Shown: piece after piece, positions 8,305-58,633 of the stretch | Layout of the letters: each line of letters opens with the position of its first letter | Position numbering within the stretch: position 1 is the first letter of the stretch | Assembly (NCBI GenBank): GCA_946185535.1 | Contig: CAMHJX010000010.1 | Span: 18,492 to 82,491, forward strand | DNA length: 64,000 bases | Direction of reading: 5' to 3' | DNA from: an uncultured Bacteroidales bacterium | GTDB taxonomy: Bacteria > Bacteroidota > Bacteroidia > Bacteroidales > F082 | The notes under the pieces: generated by a model | What the model saw: the letters and a program-made list of their open reading frames with translations, nothing else | What the model was told of the DNA's origin: nothing | The model's database searches: none | Translations under genes and position numbers: made by a program

Positions 8305-8333
8305 ATTTTTTTTTGTTTTTATTATTATCGTTT

Positions 8334-28521: not shown

Positions 28522-28551
28522 CAGAATCTAATCAGACCTAGTTTTACTATT

Positions 28552-29259
28552 ATGCGGCAAAAACTTGTAGTCTTCACCGGTGCAGGCATCAGCGCCGAGA
28601 GCGGAATCCCCACCTTTCGTGATGCCAACGGCATGTGGGGGAAATATGATGCCATGAAGTTGGCCAGCGTTGAGGGCTTCGAGGAAGACCCGCAGGCCGT
28701 GCTCGATTTCTACAATGCTCGTCGCAAAAACCTGTTGGAGGTGGAGCCGAACCATGCCCATCATGTTTTGGCTGACATGGAAAAGCGATTTGATGTGACC
28801 ATCATTACCCAAAATGTGGACAATCTGCATGAACGGGCAGGTAGTAGCAAGGTGTTGCATCTTCATGGCGAGTTGAGCAAGGTGACTTCGTCACGCAATC
28901 GTCTCGACCCCAAATGCATCAAGGAATATCCGCTTGATGTCCCGATTCGGTTAGGTGACAAAGCCGCCGATGGCTCGCAACTGCGCCCTTATATCGTATG
29001 GTTTGGCGAGTATGTCGATGGTATGGATTTGGCAGAATATTGGGTGCAACAAGCCGACATCTTTGTGGTCGTTGGCACTTCGTTGGTGGTCTATCCAGCG
29101 GCTGGGTTGGTCGATTATGCTCCGAGTGAGATTCCCAAGTTCCTGATTGACCCGAAGGACTTGAAAGGCGGCCTGCCGACTGGGTTCCAGCATATCAAGG
29201 CTAAGGCGGTGGAAGGGGTGGATGAGTTGGTGGAGAGTTTGGATGAGTTGGAAAAATAG
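28552..29259 (+). CDS. cobB: NAD-dependent protein deacylase (canonical Sir2/CobB sirtuin)
   Basis: From the ATG at 28552: MRQKLVVFTGAGISAESGIPTFRD, QNVDNLHERAG, HLHG, RPYIVWFGE, VVGTSLVVYPAA. Confidence 0.85.
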   Translation: MRQKLVVFTGAGISAESGIPTFRDANGMWGKYDAMKLASVEGFEEDPQAVLDFYNARRKNLLEVEPNHAHHVLADMEKRFDVTIITQNVDNLHERAGSSKVLHLHGELSKVTSSRNRLDPKCIKEYPLDVPIRLGDKAADGSQLRPYIVWFGEYVDGMDLAEYWVQQADIFVVVGTSLVVYPAAGLVDYAPSEIPKFLIDPKDLKGGLPTGFQHIKAKAVEGVDELVESLDELEK

Positions 29260-29288
29260 TGTAGTTTTATCGCTAAAAAACTGATGAT

Positions 29289-30500
29289 ATGGAAACAATT
29301 ATAAAAATGCTAGAATCTATCTCAAAACTTTACGAACAAGAGAAGAAAGTGGAAGAAAAGAAACGAGAAGAAGGTGAATTCTTTAATGTGTTCAATACAA
29401 TTGGTTTGCGGACGGAAGAGGTGCGGCTGCACTCTGCTTTTATTGCTGAGTTGCTAAATCCTAAAGGTTCTCATGGATTGTCTCAACGTTTCCTTCAGGC
29501 TTTTTTGGAAGTGATAGAAACATCAGATGATTATTTGGACTATTGTCGATGCGGGCACAATGATATTGTTGAGCGTGTGATTGGCCCAGTAAACGATATG
29601 GGAACAGAAGGCGGTAGAATAGATATTATCATTGAAGATGGAAACCATGCCGTCATTATTGAAAATAAAATCTATGCGAGTGACCAAAAGAACCAAATGC
29701 TTAGGTATAACAATTATGCTAAAAAAGATTTCCCCAACGGATACAAACTAGTTTATCTTTCTCTTGATGGACATGAGCCTGATGATTGTTCATTGGGAAA
29801 AGATGAGTATAAAGTCATATCCTATGAAAAAGAGATTGTTGAATGGCTTGAAAAGTGTTATTCCATTTCCGATAGTAAGCCATTGGTTCAATCTGTTATA
29901 AAGCAATATTGTGAACTTGTGAAACAAATCACCAATACAGATATGGATACAACATACAAAAATAATTTGATGTCGATAATGCTTGATTCCAAGAACGTTA
30001 TTGCCGTAGGCGAGATGTTGCAACTTCAAGATGAATGGTTTGGGATGATTCTTGAAAAGTATATATGGAATCCATTGGAAAAACTAGCAAAACAAAAGCA
30101 AATGCTGTTTGGTAAAGAATTGGAAATTGCAGGGGATTGGAATGGAGCAGGGGCATGGATATATAGGGCAGAATGGAAATATTATGGGATTTTTATTTGG
30201 ACGAAAAACAGAAAGTATTGGGCTGATATGTTTGTAGGTGTAAGTTGGTTTGAAGTGCCAAATCGGAAGAATAAAATTTCCAAAAAAGATCGTAAAGATT
30301 GTAAATTGAATTGTTTAAACTCTTTTGACCCAAATGATGAAGAATGGCCTTATGGATGGGAATTCTTGCAAAATGATATTCGTAATTGGAATTATAAAAT
30401 TATTGATAACATTGTTCAAGGGAAAGTATTTGATTACATCAAGAAAAAGTTCGAGGATATTATTTCTGAGATTGACGAGTTGCAATTAAGGATGCCGTAG
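29289..30500 (+). CDS. PD-(D/E)xK nuclease-superfamily protein (PDDEXK_4-like), AT-rich orphan
   Basis: 403 aa. FNVFNTIGLRTEEVRLHSAFIAELLNPKGSHGLSQRFLQAFL opening, then a GRIDIIIEDGNHAVIIENKIYA (D..ExK) core. Markedly lower GC than the flanks, and it sits between REP clusters. Confidence 0.65.
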   Translation: METIIKMLESISKLYEQEKKVEEKKREEGEFFNVFNTIGLRTEEVRLHSAFIAELLNPKGSHGLSQRFLQAFLEVIETSDDYLDYCRCGHNDIVERVIGPVNDMGTEGGRIDIIIEDGNHAVIIENKIYASDQKNQMLRYNNYAKKDFPNGYKLVYLSLDGHEPDDCSLGKDEYKVISYEKEIVEWLEKCYSISDSKPLVQSVIKQYCELVKQITNTDMDTTYKNNLMSIMLDSKNVIAVGEMLQLQDEWFGMILEKYIWNPLEKLAKQKQMLFGKELEIAGDWNGAGAWIYRAEWKYYGIFIWTKNRKYWADMFVGVSWFEVPNRKNKISKKDRKDCKLNCLNSFDPNDEEWPYGWEFLQNDIRNWNYKIIDNIVQGKVFDYIKKKFEDIISEIDELQLRMP

Positions 30501-43903: not shown

Positions 43904-44671
43904 ATGAAAGGTAATTTAAAACTGTCTTTGGGACTAGACGTTAAACAGTTCCATGAAGGTCTCGATGAGATCTGCCGCCACTTTGCTGACAGCCGTTCCG
44001 ATGATTACTTGAACGGTCTGGTGCAGAAGGTGGCCGAAGCCAAGGAATCGCTCTTCGCTGCCATGTACATCGCCTCGGTGAAGCGTGGTGTACTGGATGA
44101 ATCGCGAAAGCTTAACGGACGCATTGCTGCGCTGACGCGTTACCTCGACTTGTGTGCCTACGACACGGATGCCGAAGTGAGTGCCAGTGCCAGACTGTTG
44201 CGCCGACAGCTTAGGGCGTATGGCAAATCGCTCGCCCACATGCGTGTCGACAGCCGTCTGACTGCTGTTGAGGCCCTGTTGCGCGACTTGGGTGGCGACG
44301 AATTCCAGCCTCACGTGAAGCGTCTGCCTGAACTTGCCACTCGGTTTGCCGAGATAGGGAAGGCAAAGGATGACCTGAGGAAGCAACGCCTTTTGGTGGA
44401 CCAGTACAAGAGTAGCTTGGTGAAGCCTGAGTCCTTGCTTGAACTGAAACGGGAGGCGGCGGACCAGCTGGTGCCTTTAGTGGCCTACCTTGAGGTGATG
44501 GCCAGGAAAGACGCTTCTGGCTATGGTGAGGACTATGCCGTAGTGACGGAGGTCATCACCAGGCTGAACGCCACCCGACGCAGGAGCGACTACCTCCACA
44601 TCGAGGTGGAGCTTGAGGACGACGAGACCGATGACAAGGTTGAGGAGTCTCCAGTTTCCATTGGGGCTTAA
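43904..44671 (+). CDS. Hypothetical alpha-helical protein with acidic tail (possibly DUF6261-like)
   Basis: 255 aa with coiled/helical composition. YGKSLAHMRVDSRLTAVEALLRDL resembles my recollection of DUF6261. It has its own terminator downstream. Confidence 0.45.
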   Translation: MKGNLKLSLGLDVKQFHEGLDEICRHFADSRSDDYLNGLVQKVAEAKESLFAAMYIASVKRGVLDESRKLNGRIAALTRYLDLCAYDTDAEVSASARLLRRQLRAYGKSLAHMRVDSRLTAVEALLRDLGGDEFQPHVKRLPELATRFAEIGKAKDDLRKQRLLVDQYKSSLVKPESLLELKREAADQLVPLVAYLEVMARKDASGYGEDYAVVTEVITRLNATRRRSDYLHIEVELEDDETDDKVEESPVSIGA

Positions 44672-44728
44672 GCTCTCATAATGTTTTAATTTGGCGGATT
44701 AAATAAATAGGTGACTTAGAATCCGCCG

Positions 44729-44768
44729 CCTCCCCATGAGCTGTTTGGCTTGTGGGGAGGATTTTTTA
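44729..44768 (+). terminator. Intrinsic terminator
   Basis: CCTCCCCA-N16-TGGGGAGG followed by ATTTTTTATT. Confidence 0.6.
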
Positions 44769-44809
44769 TTCACTTTATAACGTATTGTGGAGTTTGCTTT
44801 GTTTTTTTA

Positions 44810-44817
44810 TATCTTTG
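44810..44817 (+). promoter_or_regulatory. -7 box TATCTTTG for the type I R-M / defence operon
   Basis: TAnnTTTG match 31 nt upstream of the hsdM ATG at 44848. Confidence 0.5.
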
Positions 44818-44847
44818 CAGTTCAAACATCTATTTATAATAGAAACA

Positions 44848-46707
44848 ATGAACCAATCGCAATACAACCAACTGTTCTCGTTCATTTGGAACATCGCAAC
44901 GGACGTGTTGGTCTATGCCTTCGAGAAAGGCGAATATAAGAAGATCATAATGCCGATGATGGTGCTGCGTCGTATCGACGTGCTGCTGGAGCCTACCAAA
45001 GACCAGCTCCTGAAGCAGAAACAGATGCTCGACGACAACCACATCCAAAACCAAGACCCCATTCTTTACAACGTCACAGGCTATCCGTTCTACAACACCT
45101 CGAAGTTCACCATGAAGACGCTGAAGAGCGAGACCGACCCGCTGCGACTGAAGATGAACTTCATCGACTACCTGAACGGCTTCAGCAAGGACGTGCAGGA
45201 TATCATCGACAAGTTCCACCTGCGCCAGATGGTCGACAATCTCACCGAGGCGGAACGCCTGGGCAGCATCATCGAGAAGTTCACCGATGATAAAATCAAC
45301 CTCTCCAATAAGCCTGTGCTTGATGACGACGGCAAAGTTCGTCTTTCTGGTCTCGACAACCACACCATGGGCACCATCTTCGAAGAGCTGCTCCGTAGGT
45401 TCAACGAGGAAAACAACGTGACTGAGGCTGGTGAGCACTTTACGCCTCGCGACTATGTGAAGCTGCTGGCCGACCTTGCTTTGATGCCCGTTGCCGACAA
45501 GATAACCGACAACACCTACCATGTCTATGACGGCGCTTGTGGCACTGGTGGCATCCTCACCATCGCACAGGAGCGCATCAAAGAGATTGCTCAGGAGCGC
45601 GGCAAGCAGGTTCAAGTGAACATCTTTGGCCAAGAGCTGCAGCCCGATACTTTCGCCACCTGCAAGGCAGACTTGATGATTTCCGAAAACATCCGCTCAT
45701 TCCGTTACCAGCATGGCATGGAGCAGCGCGAATATATCGCTTTCGATAGCACCATTTCCCGCGATGGACATCCTGGTGAGACCTTCGACTTCTGCATCTC
45801 CAATCCTCCCTTCGGCACGCCTTGGAAGGAAGATCTGAAGAAGCGTGGTCTGGGTGAGAACGAGAAAAAGAAATTCACTGATAGTCGTTTCGTCATCATC
45901 GACAGTGAAGGCCATGAGATTTCCTTCATACCCGATATTGGCGACACTCAGATGCTGTTTTTGGCCAACAACCTTTCCCGTATGCGCGAGGATACCGCCC
46001 TTGGCACCCGTATCGTCGAAGTGCATAACGGCAGCAGTCTCTTCACGGGCGATGCAGGCAGCGGCCCCAGCAACTTGCGCCAATACATCATCGAAAACGA
46101 CCTGCTGGAGGCCATCGTGGCCATGCCAGAGAGGGATTTCTACAATGCTGGTATCGGCACCTATATTTGGGTCGTTACCAACCGTAAGGAGGACCGTCGC
46201 AAAGGCTATGTGCAACTCATCGACGCTACTGAAATCAAGACTCCGCTGCGTAAGAACCTGGGCGAAAAGAATTGTGAGACCAATGAGGCTGACCGCGCCC
46301 AGATTCTGAAGCTCCTCATGGACTTCAAGGAAACGCCCCAAAGCAGGATTTTCCCCAACAATGAGTTTGGCTATTGGAGCGTGAAGGTGTACCAGCTGCA
46401 ACGCGATGAACAAGGCAACATCGTGCGGGACAAGAAAGGCAAGCCCGTGATGGATAAGAAGTCCAAGGACACGGAAATCATACCTTTCCGTTATGAGGGC
46501 GGTATAGATGGCTTTTTCGAAAACGAAATCAAGCCCTACGCACCTGACGCATGGATTGACCCGCAAAGCATCGAAGTGGGCTACGAGCTTTCGTTTACTA
46601 AATACTTCTACAAACCCAAAGAGCTGCGCACCATTGCTGAAATCTCAAAGGACATCCGTGATATTGAGCAGCGCACCGATGGCATGTTGAACGAAATACT
46701 TGGGTGA
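44848..46707 (+). CDS. hsdM: Type I restriction-modification system, DNA methyltransferase subunit M
   Basis: From the ATG at 44848: MNQSQYNQLFSFIWNIATDVL (HsdM_N style), SAM motif VYDGACGTGGIL and catalytic FCISNPPFG. The track start at 44752 is a GTG inside the upstream terminator. Confidence 0.92.
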   Translation: MNQSQYNQLFSFIWNIATDVLVYAFEKGEYKKIIMPMMVLRRIDVLLEPTKDQLLKQKQMLDDNHIQNQDPILYNVTGYPFYNTSKFTMKTLKSETDPLRLKMNFIDYLNGFSKDVQDIIDKFHLRQMVDNLTEAERLGSIIEKFTDDKINLSNKPVLDDDGKVRLSGLDNHTMGTIFEELLRRFNEENNVTEAGEHFTPRDYVKLLADLALMPVADKITDNTYHVYDGACGTGGILTIAQERIKEIAQERGKQVQVNIFGQELQPDTFATCKADLMISENIRSFRYQHGMEQREYIAFDSTISRDGHPGETFDFCISNPPFGTPWKEDLKKRGLGENEKKKFTDSRFVIIDSEGHEISFIPDIGDTQMLFLANNLSRMREDTALGTRIVEVHNGSSLFTGDAGSGPSNLRQYIIENDLLEAIVAMPERDFYNAGIGTYIWVVTNRKEDRRKGYVQLIDATEIKTPLRKNLGEKNCETNEADRAQILKLLMDFKETPQSRIFPNNEFGYWSVKVYQLQRDEQGNIVRDKKGKPVMDKKSKDTEIIPFRYEGGIDGFFENEIKPYAPDAWIDPQSIEVGYELSFTKYFYKPKELRTIAEISKDIRDIEQRTDGMLNEILG

Positions 46708-48026
46708 GCATGGAGCGGTATAGTAAATATAAAGAAAGCGGCGTGTCATGGGTTGGCCAAATTCCCGAGCAATGGGAAATCAAACAATTACGCTCTTTCT
46801 TATCCCTGTTTTCGGAAAAAGGACACGGCGATGCTCAATTATTATCTGTTACGAGGGAGCAGGGCGTTATAGTTCGTGACAAAGATGACAAGGACGAAAA
46901 CCATAATTTTGTCCCTGATGATCTGAGTGGATATAAATACATCGAAAAAGGCGATTTTGCCATCAATAAGATGAAAGCATGGCAAGGCTCATACGCTGTA
47001 TCTTGCTTTGATGGCATTGTTAGTCCTGCATACTTCACTTGCAAGTTACGAGGAGTAGACAAAGAATTTTTCAGCAGAGCTATTCGCAGTAAAGCTTATG
47101 TCCCATTTTTTACACAATACTCAAAAGGAATTAGGGTTGGACAATGGGATTTAGACCCCAATGCCTTAAAGTCAATACCTTTCTTTCTTCCCCCACTTCC
47201 CGAGCAGCAAAAAATAGTCAGTTATCTTGAAAGCAAGACATCAAGTATTGATGCCTATGTTGCCGAAAAAGAGAAAGAACTTCAACTGCTTAACGAGCTA
47301 AAAGAGGCCGAAATAGCCAAAGTAGTAACACACGGATTGAATCCAAACTTAAAATTGAAAGACAGCGGTGTGTCTTTCATCGGTATGATACCTGAGCATT
47401 GGGAAGTAGAACCTTTTGGAAGGCACTTTACATTTGGTAAAGGATTGCCCATCACCAAAGCTGACTTGTTGCCAGAAGGTTTGGCAGTTATTAGTTATGG
47501 CCAAATCCATGCAAAAACAAATACTGGTGTTACAATGGATGAAAGTTTGGTACGACGAGTGTCACCTTCATATCTTGAATCTCATCCACAATACTTGTTG
47601 CATCAAGATGATTTCGTTTTTGCCGACACGTCAGAAGATTTGGAAGGCTCTGGAAATTTTGCTTTCAACGATTATGAGGATGACATCTTTGCCGGCTATC
47701 ATACTTTGGTAGCTAGACCAATCGACCTTCTTTGTCCAAAGTATTACGCTTATCTGTTCCAATCAACGAAATGGAAGAGCCAGGTACGCTCATTGGTCAA
47801 CGGTGTTAAGGTCTACACAATAAGTAAACGTATTTTGAAAAACTCATATATCCTTATCCCCACCATAAAAGAGCAACAAGAGATAGTGGCCTATGCAGAT
47901 GAAAAAACTGTCAAGGTTAATTCTCTCATTTCAGAATTAGTATCTGAGATAAACTACTTGAAAGAATACAAGCAACGCCTCATCGCCGACTGCGTTACAG
48001 GCCAAGTGAACGTGCAAAACATCTAA
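46704..48026 (+). CDS. hsdS: Type I R-M specificity subunit S (two target-recognition domains)
   Basis: W.GQIPE.WE.K.L opening, repeated at IGMIPEHWEVEPFG. Conserved central and C-terminal helices (LPPLPEQQKIVSYLE.., IPTIKEQQEIVAYAD..LKEYKQRLI). The GTG at 46704 overlaps the hsdM stop; an alternative ATG is at 46710. Confidence 0.9.
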   Translation: MSMERYSKYKESGVSWVGQIPEQWEIKQLRSFLSLFSEKGHGDAQLLSVTREQGVIVRDKDDKDENHNFVPDDLSGYKYIEKGDFAINKMKAWQGSYAVSCFDGIVSPAYFTCKLRGVDKEFFSRAIRSKAYVPFFTQYSKGIRVGQWDLDPNALKSIPFFLPPLPEQQKIVSYLESKTSSIDAYVAEKEKELQLLNELKEAEIAKVVTHGLNPNLKLKDSGVSFIGMIPEHWEVEPFGRHFTFGKGLPITKADLLPEGLAVISYGQIHAKTNTGVTMDESLVRRVSPSYLESHPQYLLHQDDFVFADTSEDLEGSGNFAFNDYEDDIFAGYHTLVARPIDLLCPKYYAYLFQSTKWKSQVRSLVNGVKVYTISKRILKNSYILIPTIKEQQEIVAYADEKTVKVNSLISELVSEINYLKEYKQRLIADCVTGQVNVQNI

Positions 48027-48038
48027 AACCGAGGAAAT

Positions 48039-50159
48039 ATGCGTGATGCAACCAAAATAAGCGATTACTTCTATGGGGCAAAGACCCTGTTTATCATCCC
48101 ACTTTATCAGCGCAAGTATGCCTGGCAGCAGAAGCACTGTGTGCGCCTCTTTGAAGACCTGAAGAAAATCCACAAGGAAAACATCTACAGCCACTTCTTC
48201 GGCAGCATCGTGTCAACCAAGGCCGACGAGCACGAAGACGACCTGCTTATCATCGATGGCCAGCAGCGTATCACTACGCTCTCGCTGCTCATCCTGGCTG
48301 GCCTCAATGCCGTGGCCAACGGCGACATGCAGAAAGGCGATGAGGACATTGAAGAGGTTCGCAAAAACTACCTCTATGCTGTCCGTCGCCGTGTCGACCG
48401 CCAAATCAAGTTGAGACCCATCGAAGGCGACATCGAAGCCTACGACGCTTTGTTCTCAAACAATCCTGATGAGTTTGTGAAGAACACTGGCATCACCTCC
48501 AACTATCTGTTGTTCTACCAGATGATCAAGGCAAGCGATTTAACCTTTACCGATTTGATTGAATCCATCGAAAAGCTCATCATCATCGACATCTGCCTTG
48601 ACTCAAAGGACAACCCACAGCTGATTTTCGAATCACTCAACTCTTGCGGCAAGGACTTGGAAGAAGCCGACAAGGTGCGTAACTATTTGCTCATGTCACT
48701 CACACCTTCCGAACAGGAAGAGTATTATCGTTCCTACTGGAGCAAGATTGAAAAACTGACAGACAATGAACCTACGATGTTTATCCGTGACTACCTGACA
48801 GTCGAAAACGGTGCCATCAGTAACATCGAGGAATTGTACTTCGATTTCAAGAAGTACGACGAAGAGAAGCACATCGTAAGACGTGATCTTCTTGAAAAGA
48901 TGCTGAAGTTTGCCCGCTACTACAGGCAAATTACCAACGGCGAGACGGGCAATGAGCGCATCGATAGAAAGCTGAAGCAGATTGCCAACATCGGCACCAC
49001 CGTCCACCTGCCTTTCTTCCTGGCATTCTTCGACTATGCAGATGCCAATGAGTTGGACGAAAACGAAAGGTATGAGGTGCTGGATGTGGTGGAAAACTAC
49101 TGGGCACGTCGTATCATCTGCAACTATCCGGCTAATGCCCTACAGAAGATGTTCTCAACGCTGCACACCGACATCATGAAGATATACAAGCGGCACGAGA
49201 AGAGAGAAATCGAATTGACGTTGCCTTATTCTCAACTCTTGAAATTTGTGCTGTTGAGGAAACAAGGTACAGCCTCGTTCCCCAACGATACCGAGGTGAA
49301 GGATATGTTCCCCACACGTCAGATCTACAGAATCCCCATTAGCTACCGATACTTCCTCTTCGAAAGGATGGAAAACGAAAACAGCCCCGAGGCCAACGAT
49401 ACCATCGTGCCTAAGATGCAATCGGGTGAGTTTACCATTGAGCACATCATGCCTCAAACGCTTACGTCTCAGTGGAAGCAAGAGCTTGGCGATGATTGGG
49501 AAAACATCTACGACACCTATCTGCACACCTTCGCCAACCTAACGCTGACGGGCTTCAATGCCTCCTACAGCAACCATTCCTTCATGGAGAAGAAAGAAGG
49601 CTACATTGACCGCAAGGGCAACAAGATTGACGGCTTCGATAACTCAGCCTTTCGTTTGTCGAACTACCTGAAACATTGCACAAAGTGGACCTTGGATGAA
49701 ATCAAGGAACGCCAAGAAATCCTCCTGAAGAACTTCCTCGACCTATGGCCAATGATTTCAACGGAGTATGTGCCACTCGAAAAAGAGTATGAGCTGGTCT
49801 CGTTCGACGATGACGAATATGAGCTGACCAATAGAAAGATATTAGGCTTCCGCTATCGCGACGAGCGACACTCAGTCATCACCTGGAAAGACATGCTCGT
49901 GCAAGTCTGCAAGCTCATGTATAACGAGAATCCTTCCACGATGACCTATGTGGCCACCAAGAATTTCTGGATGCATGAAGAGGGCAACAGAGACAGGTCA
50001 AAGATTGCAGAACGCTGCTATGTCCACTCTTCTTGTAGCACCTATACAAAGCAGAGTATTCTGAACTATCTGTTTAAGGAACTTGGCATTCCTTCCGGAG
50101 TGCTGGAGTTTGAAATTGCGCCGCTGGCCGACAAAGTAATAGACACTGATGATGAATAA
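48039..50159 (+). CDS. DUF262 + DUF1524 (GmrSD-like, type IV restriction-type) protein embedded between hsdS and hsdR
   Basis: N-terminus FIIPLYQRKYAWQQKHCVRLFEDL...IIDGQQRITTLSLL (DUF262/ParB-like). C-terminal His-Me-type block FTIEHIMPQTL...HTFANLTL (DUF1524). Confidence 0.85.
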   Translation: MRDATKISDYFYGAKTLFIIPLYQRKYAWQQKHCVRLFEDLKKIHKENIYSHFFGSIVSTKADEHEDDLLIIDGQQRITTLSLLILAGLNAVANGDMQKGDEDIEEVRKNYLYAVRRRVDRQIKLRPIEGDIEAYDALFSNNPDEFVKNTGITSNYLLFYQMIKASDLTFTDLIESIEKLIIIDICLDSKDNPQLIFESLNSCGKDLEEADKVRNYLLMSLTPSEQEEYYRSYWSKIEKLTDNEPTMFIRDYLTVENGAISNIEELYFDFKKYDEEKHIVRRDLLEKMLKFARYYRQITNGETGNERIDRKLKQIANIGTTVHLPFFLAFFDYADANELDENERYEVLDVVENYWARRIICNYPANALQKMFSTLHTDIMKIYKRHEKREIELTLPYSQLLKFVLLRKQGTASFPNDTEVKDMFPTRQIYRIPISYRYFLFERMENENSPEANDTIVPKMQSGEFTIEHIMPQTLTSQWKQELGDDWENIYDTYLHTFANLTLTGFNASYSNHSFMEKKEGYIDRKGNKIDGFDNSAFRLSNYLKHCTKWTLDEIKERQEILLKNFLDLWPMISTEYVPLEKEYELVSFDDDEYELTNRKILGFRYRDERHSVITWKDMLVQVCKLMYNENPSTMTYVATKNFWMHEEGNRDRSKIAERCYVHSSCSTYTKQSILNYLFKELGIPSGVLEFEIAPLADKVIDTDDE

Positions 50160-50170
50160 ACCACTTAGCT

Positions 50171-53100
50171 ATGCCAACAAATGTAAGTGAGAAACAACTT
50201 GAAACCATCCTCGTCAATTACCTGTGTAACGTACATCAATACGAACAGGGTGTTTCCGAAGACTATATCAAAGACTATGCGCTTGATACGGCGCGAGTGA
50301 AGCGCTTTCTGCTGGCCACCCAAAAGAATAAGGTGGAAAACACTGCCTGCTTCGCCAACGAGATTTCTGAAAGGAAATTCTTCACCGAACTCAACAAGCA
50401 GTTGGCTCAGCGTGGCGTCACCGATGTGCTACGCAAAGGTTTCCGCTTCATTTCGGAGCTTTTCGACATGTACTATCCGCTGCCGTCCGAACTGAATCCT
50501 ACGGCTCAGGAAATGTATGAAAAGAACATCTTCTGCGTCACCCGCCAGCTCTTCTACAGCAAGGAAAACCAAAACAGCATCGATGTGATGGTTTCCTTGA
50601 ACGGTATGCCGCTGATGACCTTGGAGCTGAAGAACCACTACACTGGCCAGACTGTGGAAAACGCCGTGAAGCAGTACCAGACCGACCGCGACCCTCGTGA
50701 CCCGCTACTGGCTCCCAAGCGTTGCGCCGTACACATGGCCGTCGACGACGACGACATCAAAATGTGTACCTGGCTCAGTGGCAAAAGCTCTTGGTTCCTG
50801 CCTTTCAATAAAGGCGTGAACGGTGGCGCAGGCAACCCCATCAATCCCAACGGTGTAAAAACCGCCTATCTTTGGGAAGAAGTGTTGGAAAAGCACTCGC
50901 TTTCCGACATCATCGAGAACTATGCCCAGGTGGTGAAGAAACTCGACCCCAAAACCAACGTCGAGAAACAGAGTGTGGTTTGGCCCCGCTACCATCAGCT
51001 CGACTGCGTTCGCAAGCTTCTCGCCGAGACCAAGGCGCACGGGGTAGGTCAACGTTTCTTGATCCAGCATTCTGCTGGCTCGGGCAAGTCCAACTCCATC
51101 ACTTGGCTCGCTTATCAGCTCGTCGGCTTGCTCGACGGCACACAAGCCTTGCTCGATAGCGTCGTTGTCGTCACCGACCGCGTCAACCTCGACAACCAGA
51201 TAAAGAACAACATCGTAGCTTTCAAGCGGCTGCAGAACTTGGTGGCTTGGGCTGACAGTGCCGAGGCGCTGCGCAACCACCTCAGCAGCGGCAAGAAAAT
51301 AATCATCACCATCGTCCACAAGTTCCCCTACATACTGGAAGCCATCGGCGGTGAGCTGAAACACAAGCGTTTCGGCATCATCATCGACGAGGCTCACAGC
51401 AGTCAAAGTGGCTCACTCTCAGCCAAGATGAATATTGCGCTGAGCGGAAACGCTGGTGAGGATGAAATGGATCTGGAAGACCGCTTGACGGCCATCATCG
51501 AAGGCCGCAAGATGGTACCCAACGCCAACTACTATGCCTTCACCGCAACACCCAAGAATAAGACCCTTGAAATGTTCGGCACGCCTTTCCAGCAGCCCAC
51601 CGGGGAAATCGGCCACAAGCCTTTCCACGAGTACACCATGAAGCAAGCCATCGAAGAGGGCTTCATCATGGATGTGTTGGAACACTACACCACCTACACC
51701 AGCCTCTATAAGATTGTGAAAGCCATCGAGGAGGATCCCGTGTTTGACAAGAAAGAGGCTCAGAAGAAACTCCGCGCTTTTGTCGAAGGCCAACCCGAGA
51801 CCATCCAACAGAAAGCCAACATCATCGTTGAGCATTTCCACACGCAAGTCATCGACAAAGGCAAGGTCGGCGGTCAAGCCCGTGCAATGGTGGTCACAAG
51901 CAGCATCCTTCGCGCCATTGAGTTCTATTACGAGATTTCTCGCCTGCTCAAAGAGCGCAAGAGTCCCTACAAGGCCATCGTCGCCTTCTCAGGCTCGAAG
52001 AACTATGGCGGCAAGGAAGTGACCGAAGCCGATGTCAACGGATTTCCCTCGAAAGACATTGAGGAAAATATGGAACACGACCCGTACCGCATCCTCGTGG
52101 TGGCCGACAAGTTCCAAACCGGCTACGACCAACCTCTTTTGCACACCATGTATGTAGATAAGATCTTGACCGATGTGAAGGCCGTTCAGACGCTTTCGCG
52201 CCTGAACCGCTGCCACCCAAAGAAACGCGACACCTTCGTCCTCGATTTCGCCAACGAAGCGGAGGACATTCAGGCTGCTTTCCAGCGTTTCTATAAGACC
52301 ACCATCCTTTCACGTGAGACCGACCCCAACAAGCTCAACGACCTGCTGACGCAGATAGAGGAAGCCAACATCTACACCGAAGAAGAGGTGCGTCTGCTGA
52401 ACGAAAAGTATTGGGGTGGTGCATCGCGTGAAGAAATAGACCCAATAGTGAATGAGGCCGTAGAACGTTTCAAGCAGCTGGACGACAATGATAAGATTAT
52501 CTGCAAGAGCAGTATGCGTGGCTTTCTGCGTACCTATCCCTTCATTGCTGCGGTAATGCCTTACAAGAGCCTTGAATGGGAAATGCTTGAAACCTATTTC
52601 TCACTCCTCATCCACAAACTGCCAGTCCTGAAGGGAGAAGATTTCACCGAAGGCCTTATTGAGGCAATCGACTTCGATAAATATCGCTTGATTAAAAACG
52701 AGGAGAAAAAGATACAGCTGGAGAACCAGGACACCGAGATAGATCCTATCCCTGTCGGCAAAACCCAGGGCAATAAAGAGCCTGAGCTTGCAAAACTCAG
52801 CGACATCCTTGATGAATGGAACAACCTGCACTTCTCCAACATGGAGAAAGCGAAGGAGCAGCTGGAAGAGCTGCCTCAGCGTTTACAGGCCGATGCCACC
52901 TTCATCAATGCTGCCCGCAACAGCAACCGCGAGACCGCCATGCAGCAATGCGCTGCATCCCTGATGATGATTGTTGCCGGCATGTTGAACGAAAACACCG
53001 AGTTCTGCCGCTACTATCTTGACAACCCCGACTTCATGAACGCCATCAACCTGCGTGTCTTCGATACCGTCTACAGCAGTTTAGGTTCAAGCCCCTGGGT

Positions 53101-53179
53101 TGCAAGCGACACTCCCCTCAGCTATGGTTACACTCCCAGCAGTAATGTCCCTATGGCAGCAGAAAATCCTCCTAGCTAA
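50171..53179 (+). CDS. hsdR: Type I restriction endonuclease subunit R
   Basis: 1002 aa. N-terminal PD-(D/E)xK region (IDVMVSLNGMPLMTLELKN). SF2 helicase motifs HSAGSGKSNSI, VVVVTDRVNLD, IIIDEAHSSQSG, FTATP and VADKFQTGYDQP. Confidence 0.92.
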   Translation: MPTNVSEKQLETILVNYLCNVHQYEQGVSEDYIKDYALDTARVKRFLLATQKNKVENTACFANEISERKFFTELNKQLAQRGVTDVLRKGFRFISELFDMYYPLPSELNPTAQEMYEKNIFCVTRQLFYSKENQNSIDVMVSLNGMPLMTLELKNHYTGQTVENAVKQYQTDRDPRDPLLAPKRCAVHMAVDDDDIKMCTWLSGKSSWFLPFNKGVNGGAGNPINPNGVKTAYLWEEVLEKHSLSDIIENYAQVVKKLDPKTNVEKQSVVWPRYHQLDCVRKLLAETKAHGVGQRFLIQHSAGSGKSNSITWLAYQLVGLLDGTQALLDSVVVVTDRVNLDNQIKNNIVAFKRLQNLVAWADSAEALRNHLSSGKKIIITIVHKFPYILEAIGGELKHKRFGIIIDEAHSSQSGSLSAKMNIALSGNAGEDEMDLEDRLTAIIEGRKMVPNANYYAFTATPKNKTLEMFGTPFQQPTGEIGHKPFHEYTMKQAIEEGFIMDVLEHYTTYTSLYKIVKAIEEDPVFDKKEAQKKLRAFVEGQPETIQQKANIIVEHFHTQVIDKGKVGGQARAMVVTSSILRAIEFYYEISRLLKERKSPYKAIVAFSGSKNYGGKEVTEADVNGFPSKDIEENMEHDPYRILVVADKFQTGYDQPLLHTMYVDKILTDVKAVQTLSRLNRCHPKKRDTFVLDFANEAEDIQAAFQRFYKTTILSRETDPNKLNDLLTQIEEANIYTEEEVRLLNEKYWGGASREEIDPIVNEAVERFKQLDDNDKIICKSSMRGFLRTYPFIAAVMPYKSLEWEMLETYFSLLIHKLPVLKGEDFTEGLIEAIDFDKYRLIKNEEKKIQLENQDTEIDPIPVGKTQGNKEPELAKLSDILDEWNNLHFSNMEKAKEQLEELPQRLQADATFINAARNSNRETAMQQCAASLMMIVAGMLNENTEFCRYYLDNPDFMNAINLRVFDTVYSSLGSSPWVASDTPLSYGYTPSSNVPMAAENPPS

Positions 53180-53230
53180 CCAATTAAACAATGATTACAA
53201 CAGTAATTATCTAATCAAAAATAAATACTC

Positions 53231-53773
53231 ATGGACGAAAACGAAAACATTGAACCCGTCATCACTTATAAAGAGATGTTTGATTTAGCCCTTGGTGAAA
53301 CCATTGAACCTGTTACTAATGAAAAACAATTGAATGACATCTTACACAGTGAAAGCTTTGAATTGACAATTCGTGCTTTAGGTGACAGAAATCCTTATTT
53401 TGCACGTCACGTTTTTAGGCACCATGATATAATGACCATAATTCATAAGTTTTGTGAAATAACCAACCATGTAGAAAAAACCTTTGAGTCACACATCAGG
53501 GAAACGTATGATGTGTCCCTTGAAGAGTACGAAAAACTCTTTGGTGAAAGCATCGATGTTGCTAAAATGGAATACTATGGTGACTATCTCATAGAAGAAG
53601 AGCCTCTGCCGATTAGCTATGATGTTATTATCGATGTTTTGAATGACTCAAATATCAAAATAACACCTGAACAAGACGAGAAACTTCAAAAGCAATTAAG
53701 TCCCTTCACCGATGAGGAGTGTGAGGACCTCATCAAGCGTTGCCGTCAAGCCCCAGAACTGTTTGGCTGGTAA
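53231..53773 (+). CDS. Hypothetical highly acidic 180-aa protein (AT-rich cassette gene 1)
   Basis: Clean ATG ORF 51 nt after hsdR. Strong Asp/Glu excess, no recognisable motif. Confidence 0.5.
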   Translation: MDENENIEPVITYKEMFDLALGETIEPVTNEKQLNDILHSESFELTIRALGDRNPYFARHVFRHHDIMTIIHKFCEITNHVEKTFESHIRETYDVSLEEYEKLFGESIDVAKMEYYGDYLIEEEPLPISYDVIIDVLNDSNIKITPEQDEKLQKQLSPFTDEECEDLIKRCRQAPELFGW

Positions 53774-53797
53774 AAACACTCTAGATAATCAATAGCA

Positions 53798-54310
53798 ATG
53801 TTACAAGATATGGTTATTCCTGAATGGCTGACAGCAGTTATTTGTGTTATTGTTGGTGCTCTATTGACATTCATAGCTACAATGATAGTGAATCGGGTGT
53901 CTTATAGAAACGAATACTACAAGATGATTATTGAGAAACGCATAAAAGCATACAATAATGTAGAACGTCTCTTGTATTCTATTAAATCCGAATCTCTAAA
54001 ATGCTTATTAAAAATGCATGTGTTAAGGGATGCGAATGCGCTAAAGTCATTGAAACTAGAGATTAAGAAGGTAAAAGATGATTCTGTTTGGTTGTCAGAG
54101 AAAATGAAAGTCGCAGTATCTTCTTTGATAAATGCCATTTATTCGTTTGAAGAAAAACCAATTGAGAATTTGACAGCTAATGATACCAAAAACCTGTCTG
54201 ATGAAATCAAAGCAATGGGATTGGTAATTGAAGATATATTGGTAGAGGATTTAAAGTCATTGCATAAGGTTAGACGGTTTTTAAGAAATAAACAAGTAAT
54301 AAAAGAATAG
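53798..54310 (+). CDS. Hypothetical single-pass membrane protein (AT-rich cassette gene 2)
   Basis: N-terminal TM helix WLTAVICVIVGALLTFIATMIV, then a helical K/E-rich domain. It ends 9 nt before the AbiH-like gene. Confidence 0.5.
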   Translation: MLQDMVIPEWLTAVICVIVGALLTFIATMIVNRVSYRNEYYKMIIEKRIKAYNNVERLLYSIKSESLKCLLKMHVLRDANALKSLKLEIKKVKDDSVWLSEKMKVAVSSLINAIYSFEEKPIENLTANDTKNLSDEIKAMGLVIEDILVEDLKSLHKVRRFLRNKQVIKE

Positions 54311-54319
54311 GTTAGATTT

Positions 54320-55603
54320 ATGAATAGAATTATTCTAATTGGGAACGGCTTTGATAAAGCTCACGGGTTGCTTACGGGATATGATGACTTCATAAACTGG
54401 TATTGGAATAAAAGAGTTTCGGAATTAAAAACTGAGCTGTCAAATGCGACCAGTGATATTCTTTGTACTTTAGAGATTAACTCTGAGCATTTTAAGACTT
54501 GGAGTTTGTATTTCTTTTATCATGGGCATGAATTAAAAGCTTTAACAGGTGAAGAGATAATAAAGGGGTTTAGTGAAGTTAAAACTCATTTCCGAGTTAC
54601 AAAATCCTACTTTTTTTCTAGAATTCTTCACTCATATCATGAAAAAGGATGGGTAGATATTGAAAACGAATATTATAGATTGTTATTTCCCTCTGCCGTG
54701 AATGGGCCTTCCCCGTACAATGACAAACCAAGTGAGTTGAATGAGCAATTGGAATATGTTCGAAGTCTTTTGATAGAGTACCTGAATACTATACAAAAGG
54801 AAAAGATAAATGAATCAATTGTCAAACAAAGCATCAAAGAAAAGTTTTATTCATGTTTTAAACCGAATGATATTTCAATTAGTGCAATGCCAAAATGGAA
54901 TGAATTTGTTAGAGGGAGATGTCGTTTTGATTCGAATATAAGATTTTATGATGAATCTGATTGGGATGAATTGTTAGACGCTTATGATGTAAAAGATAAA
55001 GACTATATTAAGACGGAAAACAAACAGTTTATTAATTCATATAGGGAACAAGTTGGGAATAAGGGAATAGAATCAATCGTAAAGAATGATTTCCCCAAGC
55101 ATTTCTTGCTGCCAGATAGGATTATGCTATTGAACTTTAATTATTCAAACACCGCAGATCTTTATCTGCGTAAAGACGAAAGATTTGTAGTAAATCATAT
55201 TCATGGCAATTTGAATGAACCAGATAGCGTGATTTTTGGATATGGAGATGAATTAGATGAGAATTATAAAATAATGTCGGAGAAAAATGATAATGAGTAT
55301 TTGCGCAATATCAAGTCTGTCAAATATTTGGAATCTCCTAATTATCGCAATCTGCTTGAGTTCATAGAATCTTCGTCTTATCAGATTTTAATTATGGGAC
55401 ATTCTTGTGGCAATTCGGACAGAACCTTGCTTAACACTTTGTTTGAACATAGGAATTGCGTCTCCATTAAACCGTTTTATCATGTATTTGATGAAGGCAA
55501 GGACAACTATATGGATTTGGTTCAGAACATTTCCCGAAACTTCACCGATATGAAATTGATGCGCGATAGGGTGGTGAACAAGACTTTCTGCGAAACGATA
55601 TAA
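54320..55603 (+). CDS. AbiH-family abortive-infection-like protein (AT-rich cassette gene 3)
   Basis: N-terminus MNRIILIGNGFDKAHGLLTGYDDF matches the AbiH signature (IGNGFDLAHGL.T.Y.DF). C-terminal ILIMGHSCGNSDRTLL matches the second AbiH block (GHSL...D). Confidence 0.75.
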   Translation: MNRIILIGNGFDKAHGLLTGYDDFINWYWNKRVSELKTELSNATSDILCTLEINSEHFKTWSLYFFYHGHELKALTGEEIIKGFSEVKTHFRVTKSYFFSRILHSYHEKGWVDIENEYYRLLFPSAVNGPSPYNDKPSELNEQLEYVRSLLIEYLNTIQKEKINESIVKQSIKEKFYSCFKPNDISISAMPKWNEFVRGRCRFDSNIRFYDESDWDELLDAYDVKDKDYIKTENKQFINSYREQVGNKGIESIVKNDFPKHFLLPDRIMLLNFNYSNTADLYLRKDERFVVNHIHGNLNEPDSVIFGYGDELDENYKIMSEKNDNEYLRNIKSVKYLESPNYRNLLEFIESSSYQILIMGHSCGNSDRTLLNTLFEHRNCVSIKPFYHVFDEGKDNYMDLVQNISRNFTDMKLMRDRVVNKTFCETI

Positions 55604-55638
55604 TAACTTTCTTTGCCCCAACAAAACACTACACACCC

Positions 55639-56766
55639 ATGTCCCAAGACACTAATATCAACAACAATTTTCCCACCTTCAAGCCCTCTGAACTCATCGC
55701 CATCTTCAGCGCGGCATTAGGCCGTCAGAACGAGTTTGCCAAACTTGTCAGCCTGCGTGGTATCTACCAGCAACGACAAAACAACCCCAATTGGTCATAC
55801 GCCTATGCAGGGCTGCACGACGAGTCCTCGCAAGATGAAATCACGTTGCGCATAGCCAAGGATCTCTATGAGACCCTCATTGATGGGAACCTGATTACAG
55901 TGACAGGCATCCTCGAACGCAAAATCGACCCACGCGGTAGCGTGCAGATCACACTTAATGTGACCCGTGTGGAGAAGTTGCAAGAACAGGCCGTCAGCCT
56001 CGCCGACCAGAAGAAGGCCGAGCTGCGGCGTCACAAATCCCAGACAGGCTTCCGCAACGTGGATGGTGTGCTGGAAAAGCGTCTGCTAGCCGACGAGCGC
56101 CCACGCGTGGCCTTGCTGCTTGCCAACAACTCCATCACCATGTCGGACTTCGAGGCGGGCATACAAGCCGCCAAAACCGCTATCGACTTCACCGAGTTCC
56201 GCTCTGACTTCTTCAAGGCGGCACCGCTGTGCCAACGCCTTTGCGAAATCGACGCACAGAGCTTTGATGTTATCGCCGTGGTGCGTGGCGGAGGCATCGG
56301 CATCGAACGCCTCGACAATCTTGAAGTGTTGGAGACTTTGAGCCACCTTACTACTCCTGTCATCTCCGCCGTGGGTCACCCCGAAGAAAGGCTTACCTTT
56401 AAGGAAATTGCTGATAAGGAAGTGGCCACTCCCACGGCCTTGGGACAGTATCTCAACGAGCTGGTGGAACGCGTGGCCGACATGAAGGCTAAATCGAAGG
56501 CACTGTTGGTGCAGCAGGTGAGCAAGCAATATGCCGACCAGATTGCCAGCCTTGAGAAGCGGCTGACGAAACAAGAGAAGGACTTCAAGGAAGAGCGTGC
56601 AGGTTACGTGGAAAGGGAGAAACGCAACGTGGAGGAGATGGCCAACATGAAGAACAAGGTCGCTTGGATGGCCAACAAGCTCAATGAACGCAAGAGAACC
56701 ATCACCCTGCTGGCAGTGGGACTTGTGGCGGCTGTGGGTGTCATGATTTGGATTGCTTTACGGTGA
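55639..56766 (+). CDS. Exonuclease VII large-subunit (XseA)-like protein with C-terminal coiled coil and transmembrane anchor
   Basis: OB-fold-like N-domain (LVSLRGIYQQ...ITVTGILERKIDPRGSVQITLNVTRVE). Catalytic-domain blocks RVALLLANNSITMSDF, DVIAVVRGGGIGIERLDNLEV and PVISAVGHPEERLTFKEIADKEVATPTA. Long coiled coil, then ITLLAVGLVAAVGVMIWIAL at the extreme C-terminus. Confidence 0.6.
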   Translation: MSQDTNINNNFPTFKPSELIAIFSAALGRQNEFAKLVSLRGIYQQRQNNPNWSYAYAGLHDESSQDEITLRIAKDLYETLIDGNLITVTGILERKIDPRGSVQITLNVTRVEKLQEQAVSLADQKKAELRRHKSQTGFRNVDGVLEKRLLADERPRVALLLANNSITMSDFEAGIQAAKTAIDFTEFRSDFFKAAPLCQRLCEIDAQSFDVIAVVRGGGIGIERLDNLEVLETLSHLTTPVISAVGHPEERLTFKEIADKEVATPTALGQYLNELVERVADMKAKSKALLVQQVSKQYADQIASLEKRLTKQEKDFKEERAGYVEREKRNVEEMANMKNKVAWMANKLNERKRTITLLAVGLVAAVGVMIWIALR

Positions 56767-56789
56767 TTGTTGAGGTGGCATGGCTGCTG

Positions 56790-57115
56790 GAGCCAAGTCC
56801 CAAAGGGACGACCCCACCACACCCCGATATGTAATGTCGGGTTTTTATATTGAAAAGGGCGGATTCTTGTATGCCGCAGTCATAGATGCCCGCCAGCACA
56901 CAAGCCAGCGTCGGTATGACATGGCTGCTTGACCCTAACTCACCCCGATATGCAATGTCGGGTTTTCATGATAAGACGGATGACAATGATATTCCGCAGC
57001 CATAGATCCCAAGCCATCGCACATGCCAGCGTTGGGATGACATGGCTGCTGAATTCTGCCGCAGCCACAGATGCCAGCCGCCGCACTTGCCCATGCTGGC
57101 ATGACATGGCTGCTG
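56790..57115. repeat. Cluster of composite hairpin repeats (REP half-site, 2x CCCCGATATGCAATGTCGGGTTTT, 3x GCCGCAGCC..GACATGGCTGC)
   Basis: Copies at 56795-56846, 56873-56928, 56941-56966, 56994-57049 and 57059-57113. The track ORFs here (56929..57261, 56935..57156) are repeat read-through. Confidence 0.8.
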
Positions 57116-57164
57116 GAACTTCGCCTAAGGATGACCTTCTTTCTAAACTGCCACAACAGCCCTC

Positions 57165-58064
57165 TCAGATTACTTGTCCCAGTAGCAAGCCCTTGTCCAA
57201 TCCCATCTTGCTGAAGGCAAAAAGTTTCCTTCCCAAGTCCTTGAGTGATGCACCCAGATGATAGACTTGGCTGTCGATGATAAGGAATCGGTCGTGCACG
57301 CGTGTGCGTGTGGCTTTTAGCTCGGTCTTACGACCGGTCTGCACAAGGCAATCGGACTGGAGCACCAATAGGGTAGGGATGATTCGCTCCACAAAAATGG
57401 TCGCTTCCACGCCGTCGTTTCGGCATTCAAGGATGTCGAAGTCCGAAGCGTCAATGTAATTGTCGATGAGGATGACCTCCTGATGCGCCGTCTTTATCAA
57501 GTTTTCGGCAAACAGGCGTGCGTCGAGAACCTGACCTTCGAACAACACACCTTCAACAGGCGGCAGATTGGTACGGATGAAGAAGTCTATCTTTTCTGAA
57601 TGGAGGTCGGTTTTTTCTTCCAATAGACGAATCCTGTTGCTTTGTTCGTCAAAACGTGCATCCAACTGCATTTGAAAAGCCTGTAGTTGCTGCCTAACGG
57701 CATAACCGCGGAGCAAGTATTCTTTCAAAACCTGATTGGCCCATCGGCGGAACGCTGTTGCATTGATGCTATTGACGCGATAGCCTACAGACAATATCGC
57801 GTCAAGGTTATAGAATTTGGTGGAGTACATTTGTTTTCCGTCGTTACCCATAAGTTCCAAAATGGAACATGTGCTGTTTTCTTCCAGTTCGCCACTAGAA
57901 TAGATGTTCTTTAGGTGCTTTGTGATGGCGGGTCTTTTTGTTCCGAACAGGTCGGCAATTTGTTGCTGTGTAAGCCAAACGGAATCCTCTTGTACCCGCA
58001 CTTCAAGCTTGACCATCTCGTTTGGTTGATAAAGCACAATCTCGTTTTCTTTTCTTGTTTCCAT
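57165..58064 (-). CDS. RhuM-family (virulence/DNA-binding) protein
   Basis: EIVLYQPNEMVKLEVRVQEDSVWLTQQQIADLFG...FYNLDAILSVGYRVNSINATAFRRWANQVLKEYLLRGYA is the characteristic RhuM N-terminal region. Confidence 0.8.
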   Translation of the reverse strand: METRKENEIVLYQPNEMVKLEVRVQEDSVWLTQQQIADLFGTKRPAITKHLKNIYSSGELEENSTCSILELMGNDGKQMYSTKFYNLDAILSVGYRVNSINATAFRRWANQVLKEYLLRGYAVRQQLQAFQMQLDARFDEQSNRIRLLEEKTDLHSEKIDFFIRTNLPPVEGVLFEGQVLDARLFAENLIKTAHQEVILIDNYIDASDFDILECRNDGVEATIFVERIIPTLLVLQSDCLVQTGRKTELKATRTRVHDRFLIIDSQVYHLGASLKDLGRKLFAFSKMGLDKGLLLGQVI

Positions 58065-58397: not shown

Positions 58398-58561
58398 ACC
58401 GGGTAGGGTGCGCGGGCCTGGCCGACATGGGGGAGGGGCGCTCGCTATGTGCGTAGGGCCCATGATGTCGGCCTTGAATTTTTGGTCCTTTTGTTTCAAG
58501 ACAAAAGGACGGAAATAAATGGCCGCAGCCGCACCTGCCCATGCAGGCATGACATGGCTGC
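58398..58561. repeat. ~160-bp composite multi-hairpin repeat, copy 1
   Basis: ACCGGGTAGGGTGCGCGGGCCTGGCCGACATGG...CATGATGTCGGCC...GGTCCTTTTGTTTCAAGACAAAAGGAC...GGCCGCAGCC..GACATGGCTGC. It is paralogous to 59591-59752. Confidence 0.8.
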
Positions 58562-58633
58562 TAAAGCCTCAGTAAAAATAGAAATATCATCCATCCCCTT
58601 GCGGGTTTGTGGAAAAGTTGTATTTTTGCAGCG

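Follow-up and report, generated by a model that had tools for sequence, protein, structure and literature searches.

The window analysed here is a 64,000-nucleotide (nt) stretch of contig CAMHJX010000010.1 (GenBank assembly GCA_946185535.1, positions 18,492 to 82,491) from an uncultured Bacteroidales bacterium. The gene under study lies on its plus strand (55639..56766) and encodes a relative of XseA, the large subunit of exonuclease VII (ExoVII). This open reading frame (ORF) begins with ATG and comprises 375 codons for a protein of 375 amino acids (aa). The start codon is located 35 nt past the stop codon of a Pfam-confirmed AbiH gene (E = 1.8e-26), and the gene is co-directional with the preceding genes for HsdM, HsdS, GmrSD and HsdR, two small unmatched ORFs and AbiH. 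Its position as the last co-directional gene after a row of defence genes agrees with an earlier note on this DNA. Four parts follow one another along the protein: an N-terminal OB-fold domain (about aa 16–115, 55684..55983), a catalytic alpha/beta domain (about aa 121–262, 55999..56424), a helical neck and stalk (about aa 265–351, 56431..56691) with the neck conserved to about aa 305, and a predicted C-terminal transmembrane (TM) anchor (about aa 352–374, 56692..56760) that is followed by a single Arg.

The kinship with XseA is supported by several comparisons. Pfam Exonuc_VII_L matches residues 199–350 with E = 7e-15 and 55.7 bits against a gathering score of 35.9. The NCBIfam model for xseA (TIGR00237) aligns to residues 53–356 with 60.7 bits, well below the equivalog cutoff of 180, and relatives of the protein score 49–65 bits on this model. 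A phmmer search of the PDB with the single 375-aa sequence gave no match. Detection required a family profile: built from 61 diverse homologs, it matches the large subunit of E. coli ExoVII (8txr_A, E = 4.4e-14), and this match brings the RGGG and GHxxD blocks into register. The AlphaFold model, computed with 39 homologs (mean predicted local distance difference test score, pLDDT, 77.9), consists of a five-stranded barrel (residues 35–115; strands 35–45, 54–60, 67–73, 85–96 and 102–115), an alpha/beta domain (156–262) and an unbroken helix (265–374). When this model was submitted to Foldseek, the 8txr chains came first (8txr_A, E = 2.5e-17, 360 columns aligned), followed by a second tier of OB folds from aminoacyl-tRNA synthetases, SSB and MCM that match the N-terminal domain. 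The XseA layout and the OB-fold-like N-terminal domain described in the earlier note are thereby confirmed, the latter by the modelled barrel and Foldseek while the Pfam OB models carried by canonical XseA proteins (PF13742 and PF01336) found no match in the 375-aa protein. The note had also described a long coiled coil after the catalytic domain. The long helix is indeed there; the model renders it as one continuous helix (265–374), with a pLDDT of only about 50–60 around residues 320–360.

Alignment with E. coli XseA pairs D170 with D155, R216 with R205, H247 with H238, E250 with D241 (a conservative change from Asp to Glu) and D259 with D250. Residues D155, R205, H238 and D241 are essential in the E. 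coli protein (PMC3439923). All four essential positions are matched, as expected from the hallmark blocks and the upstream Asp that the note had pointed out. D170, the R216-G-G-G block, G246-H247 and P265 are invariant among the canonical and tail-anchored sequences in this alignment. The fourth catalytic position (E250) is occupied by Asp or Glu across the family, and D170, R216-G-G-G, G246-H247, E250 and D259 are invariant or nearly so in 61 diverse family members. Judged from profiles, alignment and model, the protein is genuinely related to XseA and retains the full catalytic signature, yet it is not a canonical XseA.

Without XseB, canonical XseA shows neither activity nor DNA binding (PMC3439923; for the inactivity see also PMC10835039), and a strand of XseB completes the nuclease fold of ExoVII (PMC10835039). 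Several XseB subunits attach to the helical domain of canonical XseA. Consistent with the claim that no xseB partner is nearby, Pfam found no Exonuc_VII_S match in the six frames of 55300–57200 or in the neighbouring ORFs, including the small ORFs of the operon.

The C-terminal hydrophobic helix noticed earlier was also recovered. The best 19-residue Kyte–Doolittle window scores 2.55 and covers residues 355–373, with two residues left after it. This TM call is a hydropathy calculation and does not come from a dedicated TM predictor. The protein has no signal peptide, and the flanking charge on the N-terminal side of the anchor is positive. An exhaustive search of 1.84 billion representatives placed the protein in a distinct family with roughly 1,000 clusters when grouped at 50% identity (1061 clusters at E < 1e-3, 389 at < 1e-10 and 122 at < 1e-30). 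In a third search for homologs, based on a profile of distant members, 18 proteins were recovered. Among the 127 representatives of at least 320 aa, 120 carry a strongly hydrophobic helix no more than 12 residues from the C-terminus, down to 23% identity, and only three contain an N-terminal hydrophobic stretch. The family means are a net charge of +1.9 before the anchor helix and +0.4 after it, and a tail of 2 aa. Since positive charge precedes the helix, the tail is only about two residues long and N-terminal hydrophobic stretches are almost absent, the predicted topology is N-in, with a cytoplasmic head and a C-terminal anchor in the inner membrane.

Family alignments show about 290 conserved residues, covering the OB fold, the catalytic domain and the neck helix, followed by the stalk and the anchor. 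The canonical LSPL...RGYS block is absent from every tail-anchored sequence aligned, and the C-terminal beta-barrel is missing, as the model ends in the helix. In canonical ExoVII, this barrel dimerises XseA within the XseA4–XseB24 complex (PMC10835039). In the tail-anchored family a predicted TM helix takes the place of the barrel. As far as hydropathy can tell, this anchor defines the whole family and is no oddity of the gene at 55639–56766. In summary of the comparison with E. coli XseA (8txr; PF02601; TIGR00237), the shared elements are the N-terminal OB fold, the catalytic domain with RGGG...GHxx(D/E), the Asp equivalent to D155 and the long helix that follows. In contrast to the E. coli protein, the family member, about 16% identical to it, reaches 60.7 instead of 180 bits and lacks a Pfam OB match; the family stalk is rich in Gln, Lys and Glu and varies freely in length (from about 50 to more than 300 aa), no xseB lies nearby, and the genes reside in defence islands, plasmids and integrated islands rather than in housekeeping surroundings.

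To place the gene in its genomic context, related loci (L numbers) were collected from genomes (10), metagenomes (54) and IMG/VR (5), the contigs of which contain family matches, together with contexts from exact-protein look-ups. The metagenome scan used the single protein as query and reached relatives of at least 43% identity; most loci sampled stem from rumen and gut Bacteroidales metagenomes. Defence genes were labelled by seeds, so that the counts given for them are lower bounds.

In the window, the gene follows a block (44752..55603, plus strand) of HsdM (44752–46707), HsdS (46704–48026), GmrSD (48039–50159), HsdR (50171–53179), a 180-aa ORF (53231–53773), a 170-aa ORF with an N-terminal TM segment (53798–54310) and the AbiH-like gene (54320–55603). 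We describe this block, assigned by Pfam and PADLOC, as exchangeable defence cargo: unrelated arrays occupy the same place in relatives. Proteins that are 81–97% identical to the 375-aa protein are encoded behind unrelated upstream genes, with an HsdR that is either about 24% identical or absent. AbiH is the immediately preceding (−1) gene in only five loci; AbiH and the XseA-like gene are co-inherited in L007, L009, L020 and L026, while an AbiH-like identity of the −1 genes of L001 and L002 was ruled out. The −1 gene is ApeA in L005, GmrSD_N in L003 and L024, HsdR in L036, KAP in L041 and a CoiA-like nuclease in L021, and L029 contains BREX arrays (BrxL). The −1 gene is co-directional in 44 of 50 loci, and 23 of 32 loci have at least five consecutive co-directional genes upstream. 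Among 119 dereplicated upstream proteins, HsdR domains are the commonest (9–10 proteins), followed by the Pfam families GmrSD, AAA_15/21, Methylase_S, BrxL, KAP, AbiH and DNA methylases; PADLOC recognises 11 of the 119 as type I restriction enzymes. The 115 downstream proteins are mixed, with no restriction-modification (R-M) family among the top 25.

The other side of the cargo is also bordered by a conserved gene. The 5' border gene (43904..44671, plus strand) encodes 255 aa with a weak DUF6261 match, and L024 and L033 have homologs of it some 10 kb before the XseA-like gene, separated from that gene by other cargo than in the window; L024 and the window share 96% nt identity at 44480–44766. 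Downstream, a variable stretch that includes a RhuM-family gene (57165..58064, minus strand; Pfam, NCBIfam) gives way to the chromosomal backbone with an LD-carboxypeptidase-like gene (59754–60941) and ArcA (60969–62261). These assignments come from Pfam/NCBIfam and from presence or absence in relatives, where the synteny of the two backbone genes recurs. The rest of the window is chromosomal backbone as well, with RecA, a GH2 beta-galactosidase, MatE and others. Since the window contains no tRNA genes and no integrase among the ORFs scanned, a recent integrative element is unsupported. In close relatives, the XseA-like gene is thus the constant last gene behind swapped defence cassettes that follow the 255-aa border gene.

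This constancy bears directly on the proposal in the earlier note that the protein is an effector or sensor of the type I R-M/GmrSD/AbiH operon. Such a dedicated subunit would fit the co-directional arrangement, the 35 nt spacing from AbiH with a degenerate promoter-like element and no terminator in between, and the co-inheritance with AbiH in four loci. However, HsdR, GmrSD and AbiH are each dispensable neighbours of a gene that is 81–97% identical behind unrelated systems, AbiH precedes it in five loci only, and L002 does without HsdR, GmrSD and AbiH. In this locus (81% identity), a beta-eliminating lyase and an unknown gene lie upstream and no defence genes are recognised. The swapped upstream genes, L002, promoter-like elements of the gene's own and the breaks of homology at the gene ends contradict the proposal, and we consider a dedicated subunit of this operon highly improbable.

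The promoter-like element is a perfect TAnnTTTG in 17 of the 29 close relatives, located 30–36 nt ahead of the ATG irrespective of the preceding gene, and we take it to be the Bacteroidetes −7 promoter consensus; the background is 1.7% per search window. In the window itself, a version with one mismatch (TTTCTTTG, 55608..55615, plus strand) lies 31 nt upstream of the ATG. According to blastn, homology to relatives starts between −40 and +20 nt of the ATG and stops no more than about 30 nt past the stop codon, ending at 56768–56794 in the window. Within these limits the gene is about 85% identical to L023 and L067 at the nt level, which is the level of ArcA (84–86%). The first seven or so codons exist in two versions, MSQDTNINNNF... 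and MSDQPNNNNF... (compared with L005, L006, L008, L022, L024 and L027), and nt homology to the second N-terminal group begins only at 55659. Because of these two versions and the late start of homology, we believe that the data suggest recombination breakpoints of cargo exchange inside the 5' end of the gene, near codon 7.

These observations raise the possibility that the gene is a mere border. It could serve a housekeeping or mobile-element-backbone function, such as DNA repair at the membrane or damage tolerance, and owe its defence neighbours solely to a recombination hotspot in its upstream flank, to which the gene contributes the homology arm. A divergence equal to that of ArcA, homology that breaks exactly at the gene ends, two N-terminal variants with a breakpoint near codon 7, the promoter-like element in most close relatives and the apparently "empty" site in L002 all speak for this explanation, as does the fact that canonical ExoVII is a repair enzyme (PMC10835039). 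The evidence from more distant relatives bears on it from both sides.

A subfamily about 47% identical to the 375-aa protein (463–493 aa) occupies the same terminal position with tighter packing. The preceding ORFs encode a trypsin-like protein, a PRTase-like protein, a 1233-aa Schlafen/AlbA_2 protein after McrB and McrC, or a KAP NTPase after GmrSD and HsdR. Since truncated halves of comM abut the gene, this subfamily can be placed at the edge of islands inserted into comM. Downstream of the gene in L012, L013, L056, L061, L071 and L075, all that is present of comM is its 3' half, in some cases after an intervening ORF of 128 aa. In L081 and L082, the 5' half of comM borders the gene from the opposite strand; reading towards the gene, the upstream sequence encodes a helix-turn-helix protein, an Eco57I-like type IIG enzyme, a 258-aa protein and the trypsin-like protein. 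Islands with defence cargo in comM (YifB/Mg-chelatase-like) of gut and rumen Bacteroidales were seen in both orientations. A 492-aa gene downstream in L043, L055 and L059 is not a full-length comM; it encodes a Y-family polymerase and is followed by a YolD-like gene. The family is also present on plasmids. A 205 kb plasmid of Prevotella sp. E2-28 carries a 461-aa copy with the anchor that adjoins type I R-M, GIY-YIG, WYL and AAA genes. A 117 kb MOBP plasmid of B. ovatus carries a copy, without the anchor as annotated, directly after a PD-(D/E)XK nuclease and near S24/Y-family polymerase genes and RhuM. The pattern of a constant last gene holds in two Bacteroidales subfamilies and is not tied to any one neighbouring system.

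Two recurrent neighbours of this subfamily deserve mention. The 1233-aa protein, with Schlafen/AlbA_2 as its only match, is encoded directly upstream in L014, L048, L050, L051 and L053. McrC precedes it in L050, L051 and L053, and in the first two of these three loci McrB lies beyond McrC. The protein may be an accessory factor of type IV restriction that has so far gone uncharacterised. The trypsin-like ORF (148–195 aa) runs 4–8 nt into the XseA-like gene in L012, L043, L059, L071 and L075, adjoins it in L081 and L082, and is separated from it by 188 nt in L055. It is often preceded by UDG-like (240–258 aa) and PRTase-like (630–860 aa) genes, and this array looks like a conserved multi-gene module and is a candidate for one.

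For the explanation of the gene as a border with a backbone function, these loci are difficult. The terminal position is kept in two subfamilies of about 47% identity, across a chromosomal hotspot, comM islands and a plasmid; the mid subfamily, as we call the 47% group, packs the gene into the same transcription unit as the defence genes; and the plasmid copies speak against a core housekeeping role. The far members in housekeeping contexts and the SOS/translesion cassettes near three subfamilies (L043; the B. ovatus plasmid; L074/L080) point the other way. In view of both sides, we hold this explanation to be possible but somewhat unlikely.

Conserved genes that flank slots for defence systems are familiar from P2/P4-like element hotspots and the core defence hotspots of Pseudomonas. 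As in those cases, a constant gene borders a slot of mutually replacing systems and a second conserved gene stands opposite. Unlike those flanking genes, members of the same family mark slots in at least three settings (chromosome, comM islands, plasmid), and one subfamily appears to be co-transcribed with the cargo.

The survey of homologs for R-M and Abi neighbours suggested by the earlier note gave a graded result. Of the 17 close loci at least 12 have defence genes upstream, as do at least 9 of the 19 mid loci but none of the four far ones, in a sample that is small and biased to Bacteroidales, with kinship ignored. These numbers raise the question of whether the protein is a new defence gene in its own right, that is, a tethered nuclease that acts as anti-phage or anti-plasmid effector, either constitutively on invading single-stranded DNA (ssDNA) or after release or activation upon infection. 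In one clade, the translationally coupled trypsin-like protease might release or activate the nuclease. The close and mid loci in defence islands, with which the counts of upstream families agree, the plasmid copy inside a defence cluster, the trypsin-like ORF at the gene start in seven loci and the conserved catalytic residues would all be in line with this idea. On the other hand, no PADLOC model and nothing in the literature searched matches such a system, the association is positional and largely represents one hotspot per lineage, the far members are not associated with defence, and the vertical-like conservation differs from that of typical defence genes with their fast turnover. Although a defence role of the gene is plausible, we regard a stand-alone defence gene as decidedly unlikely.

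The explanation that we favour, and to which we give about an even chance, is that the protein is an autonomous, tail-anchored paralog of the ExoVII large subunit that would act as a membrane-tethered ssDNA nuclease and as an accessory of islands and mobile elements. The cytoplasmic head, consisting of OB fold and nuclease domain, would sit on the helical stalk, which the single C-terminal TM helix would fix to the inner membrane. In the canonical enzyme, a parallel pair of XseA helices connects the head with the C-terminal barrel (PMC10835039). Because the TM helix replaces the barrel that joins these parallel helices, the tail-anchored proteins would probably form parallel dimers, each resembling one half of the ExoVII spindle set upright on the membrane. 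From this position the enzyme could work as a membrane-proximal exonuclease that degrades ssDNA at the inner face of the membrane. Possible substrates would be DNA that arrives by conjugation, transformation or phage infection, or intermediates formed when the mobile element itself is processed. As a generic accessory, a tethered nuclease of this kind would be equally useful behind any system directed at double-stranded DNA (dsDNA), which could explain why it is retained while the cargo turns over. In a more specific version, the family would represent an XseB-independent class of membrane-tethered ssDNA exonucleases that form a generic barrier to ssDNA entering by conjugation or transformation and to ssDNA or injected phage DNA, kept by mobile elements and defence hotspots as constant terminal gene to complement dsDNA-directed systems such as R-M, BREX and McrBC, and in one clade maybe released or activated by the coupled trypsin-like protease. 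We offer this version tentatively and think it unlikely to hold.

Several observations weigh against an autonomous accessory nuclease. We infer a role for ssDNA at the membrane from the architecture alone. Because canonical XseA is inactive alone and the XseB strand completes the fold, the paralog might depend on an XseB from another locus, or might not act as a nuclease in the cell. The promoter-like element of the window (TTTCTTTG) bears a mismatch. In the 47% subfamily, the spacing between the preceding ORF, whatever its family, and the ATG ranges from −8 to +9 nt, and no promoter-like element was found; since the ORFs abut or overlap and lack this element, co-transcription with the defence genes is probable and makes autonomy less clear there. 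The neighbourhood may also reflect a recombination hotspot with the gene as homology arm. Finally, the distant members (26–33% identity), counted in four loci, have no recognised defence genes upstream in any of them: L076 is a housekeeping context, and L074 and L080 adjoin a RES-Xre toxin–antitoxin pair and a LexA-ImuB-DnaE2 cassette. The SOS-polymerase neighbours hint at a role in damage tolerance. Such SOS/translesion cassettes were seen near members of three subfamilies, with IMS and YolD-like genes in L043, L055 and L059, an S24 peptidase and a Y-family polymerase in L078, and LexA, ImuB-like and DnaE2-like genes in L074 and L080.

Two known types of nuclease provide instructive comparisons with a tail-anchored ExoVII paralog. 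Membrane-bound competence nucleases such as EndA from S. pneumoniae and NucA from B. subtilis face outwards. The analogy with them concerns function alone, in that a nuclease is placed at the membrane site of foreign DNA entry; the folds are unrelated, and the head of the present family is predicted to be cytoplasmic. ExoVII itself has been likened to SbcCD/Mre11-Rad50 (PMC10835039). The tail-anchored proteins share with these complexes a nuclease head on a long helical rod, the far end of which mediates association, in this case with the membrane. In contrast to SbcCD/Mre11-Rad50, they contain no ATPase, and the rod ends in a predicted TM helix instead of a zinc hook or a beta-barrel.

The statement in the earlier note that no described defence system is built on a membrane-tethered ExoVII-like nuclease can be upheld. 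No model of PADLOC-DB v2.0.0 matches the 375-aa protein at E ≤ 0.01, and a full-text literature search returned nothing on membrane-anchored XseA or on ExoVII-like proteins in defence islands. A structural study from 2024 surveyed about 340 XseA sequences and makes no mention of tail-anchored forms. Database entries for family members read "hypothetical protein" or "exonuclease VII large subunit". While the enzyme family as such is known, the predicted tail-anchored architecture and the genomic context appear to be new. ExoVII is seen as a soluble XseA4–XseB24 repair machine, and an anchor that replaces the dimerising barrel would be a new architecture for this nuclease. The family also bears on the questions of whether XseA can function without XseB and what purpose the long rod serves. 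Because of its fixed 3' position behind the cassettes, the gene can serve in practice to locate defence hotspots in Bacteroidales of rumen and gut, the defence systems of which are poorly charted, and several unannotated genes upstream of it are candidates for new systems. Should the protein itself restrict ssDNA that enters the cell, it would cover what dsDNA-directed systems leave open.

Three further features of the locus and its surroundings were noticed. Within the cargo, the GmrSD-type (type IV) gene at 48039–50159 sits between hsdS and hsdR and matches the PADLOC models Orf5 and HEC-06 with E = 3.8e-136. The 180-aa and 170-aa ORFs (53231–54310) match nothing above E = 0.009 in four libraries and have no homologs in related loci. 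The variable junction DNA 3' of the XseA-like gene (56769..57117, plus strand) consists of repeat units of about 121 bp that carry the motif GCATGACATGGCTGCTG. This motif occurs five times in the window against 0.28 expected matches, including copies at 58547–58563 and 59543–59559. Each unit bears a terminator-like hairpin, CCCGATATG(T/C)AATGTCGGG, followed by a T-run; one lies 57 nt past the stop codon (56823..56851, plus strand) and a second copy at 56944–56962. The motif recurs around the gene in nine related loci (among them L005–L007, L020, L025, L027, L029 and L030), in every case on the same strand; in L006 one copy immediately precedes the gene. This repeat may be an element of the repetitive extragenic palindromic (REP) or miniature inverted-repeat transposable element (MITE) type that marks island junctions.

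At a greater distance from the gene, a SIR2-family gene (246 aa) adjoins a PD-(D/E)XK (PDDEXK_4) gene (403 aa) at 28519–30497 on the plus strand, about 2.5 kb upstream of recA, and the pair may form a separate two-gene defence-like module. The minus strand at 5890–20376 contains six tandem ORFs of about 711–824 aa; the one that was scanned (5890–8334) encodes a Peptidase_C10 (streptopain-like) protein with a Spi inhibitor-like propeptide.

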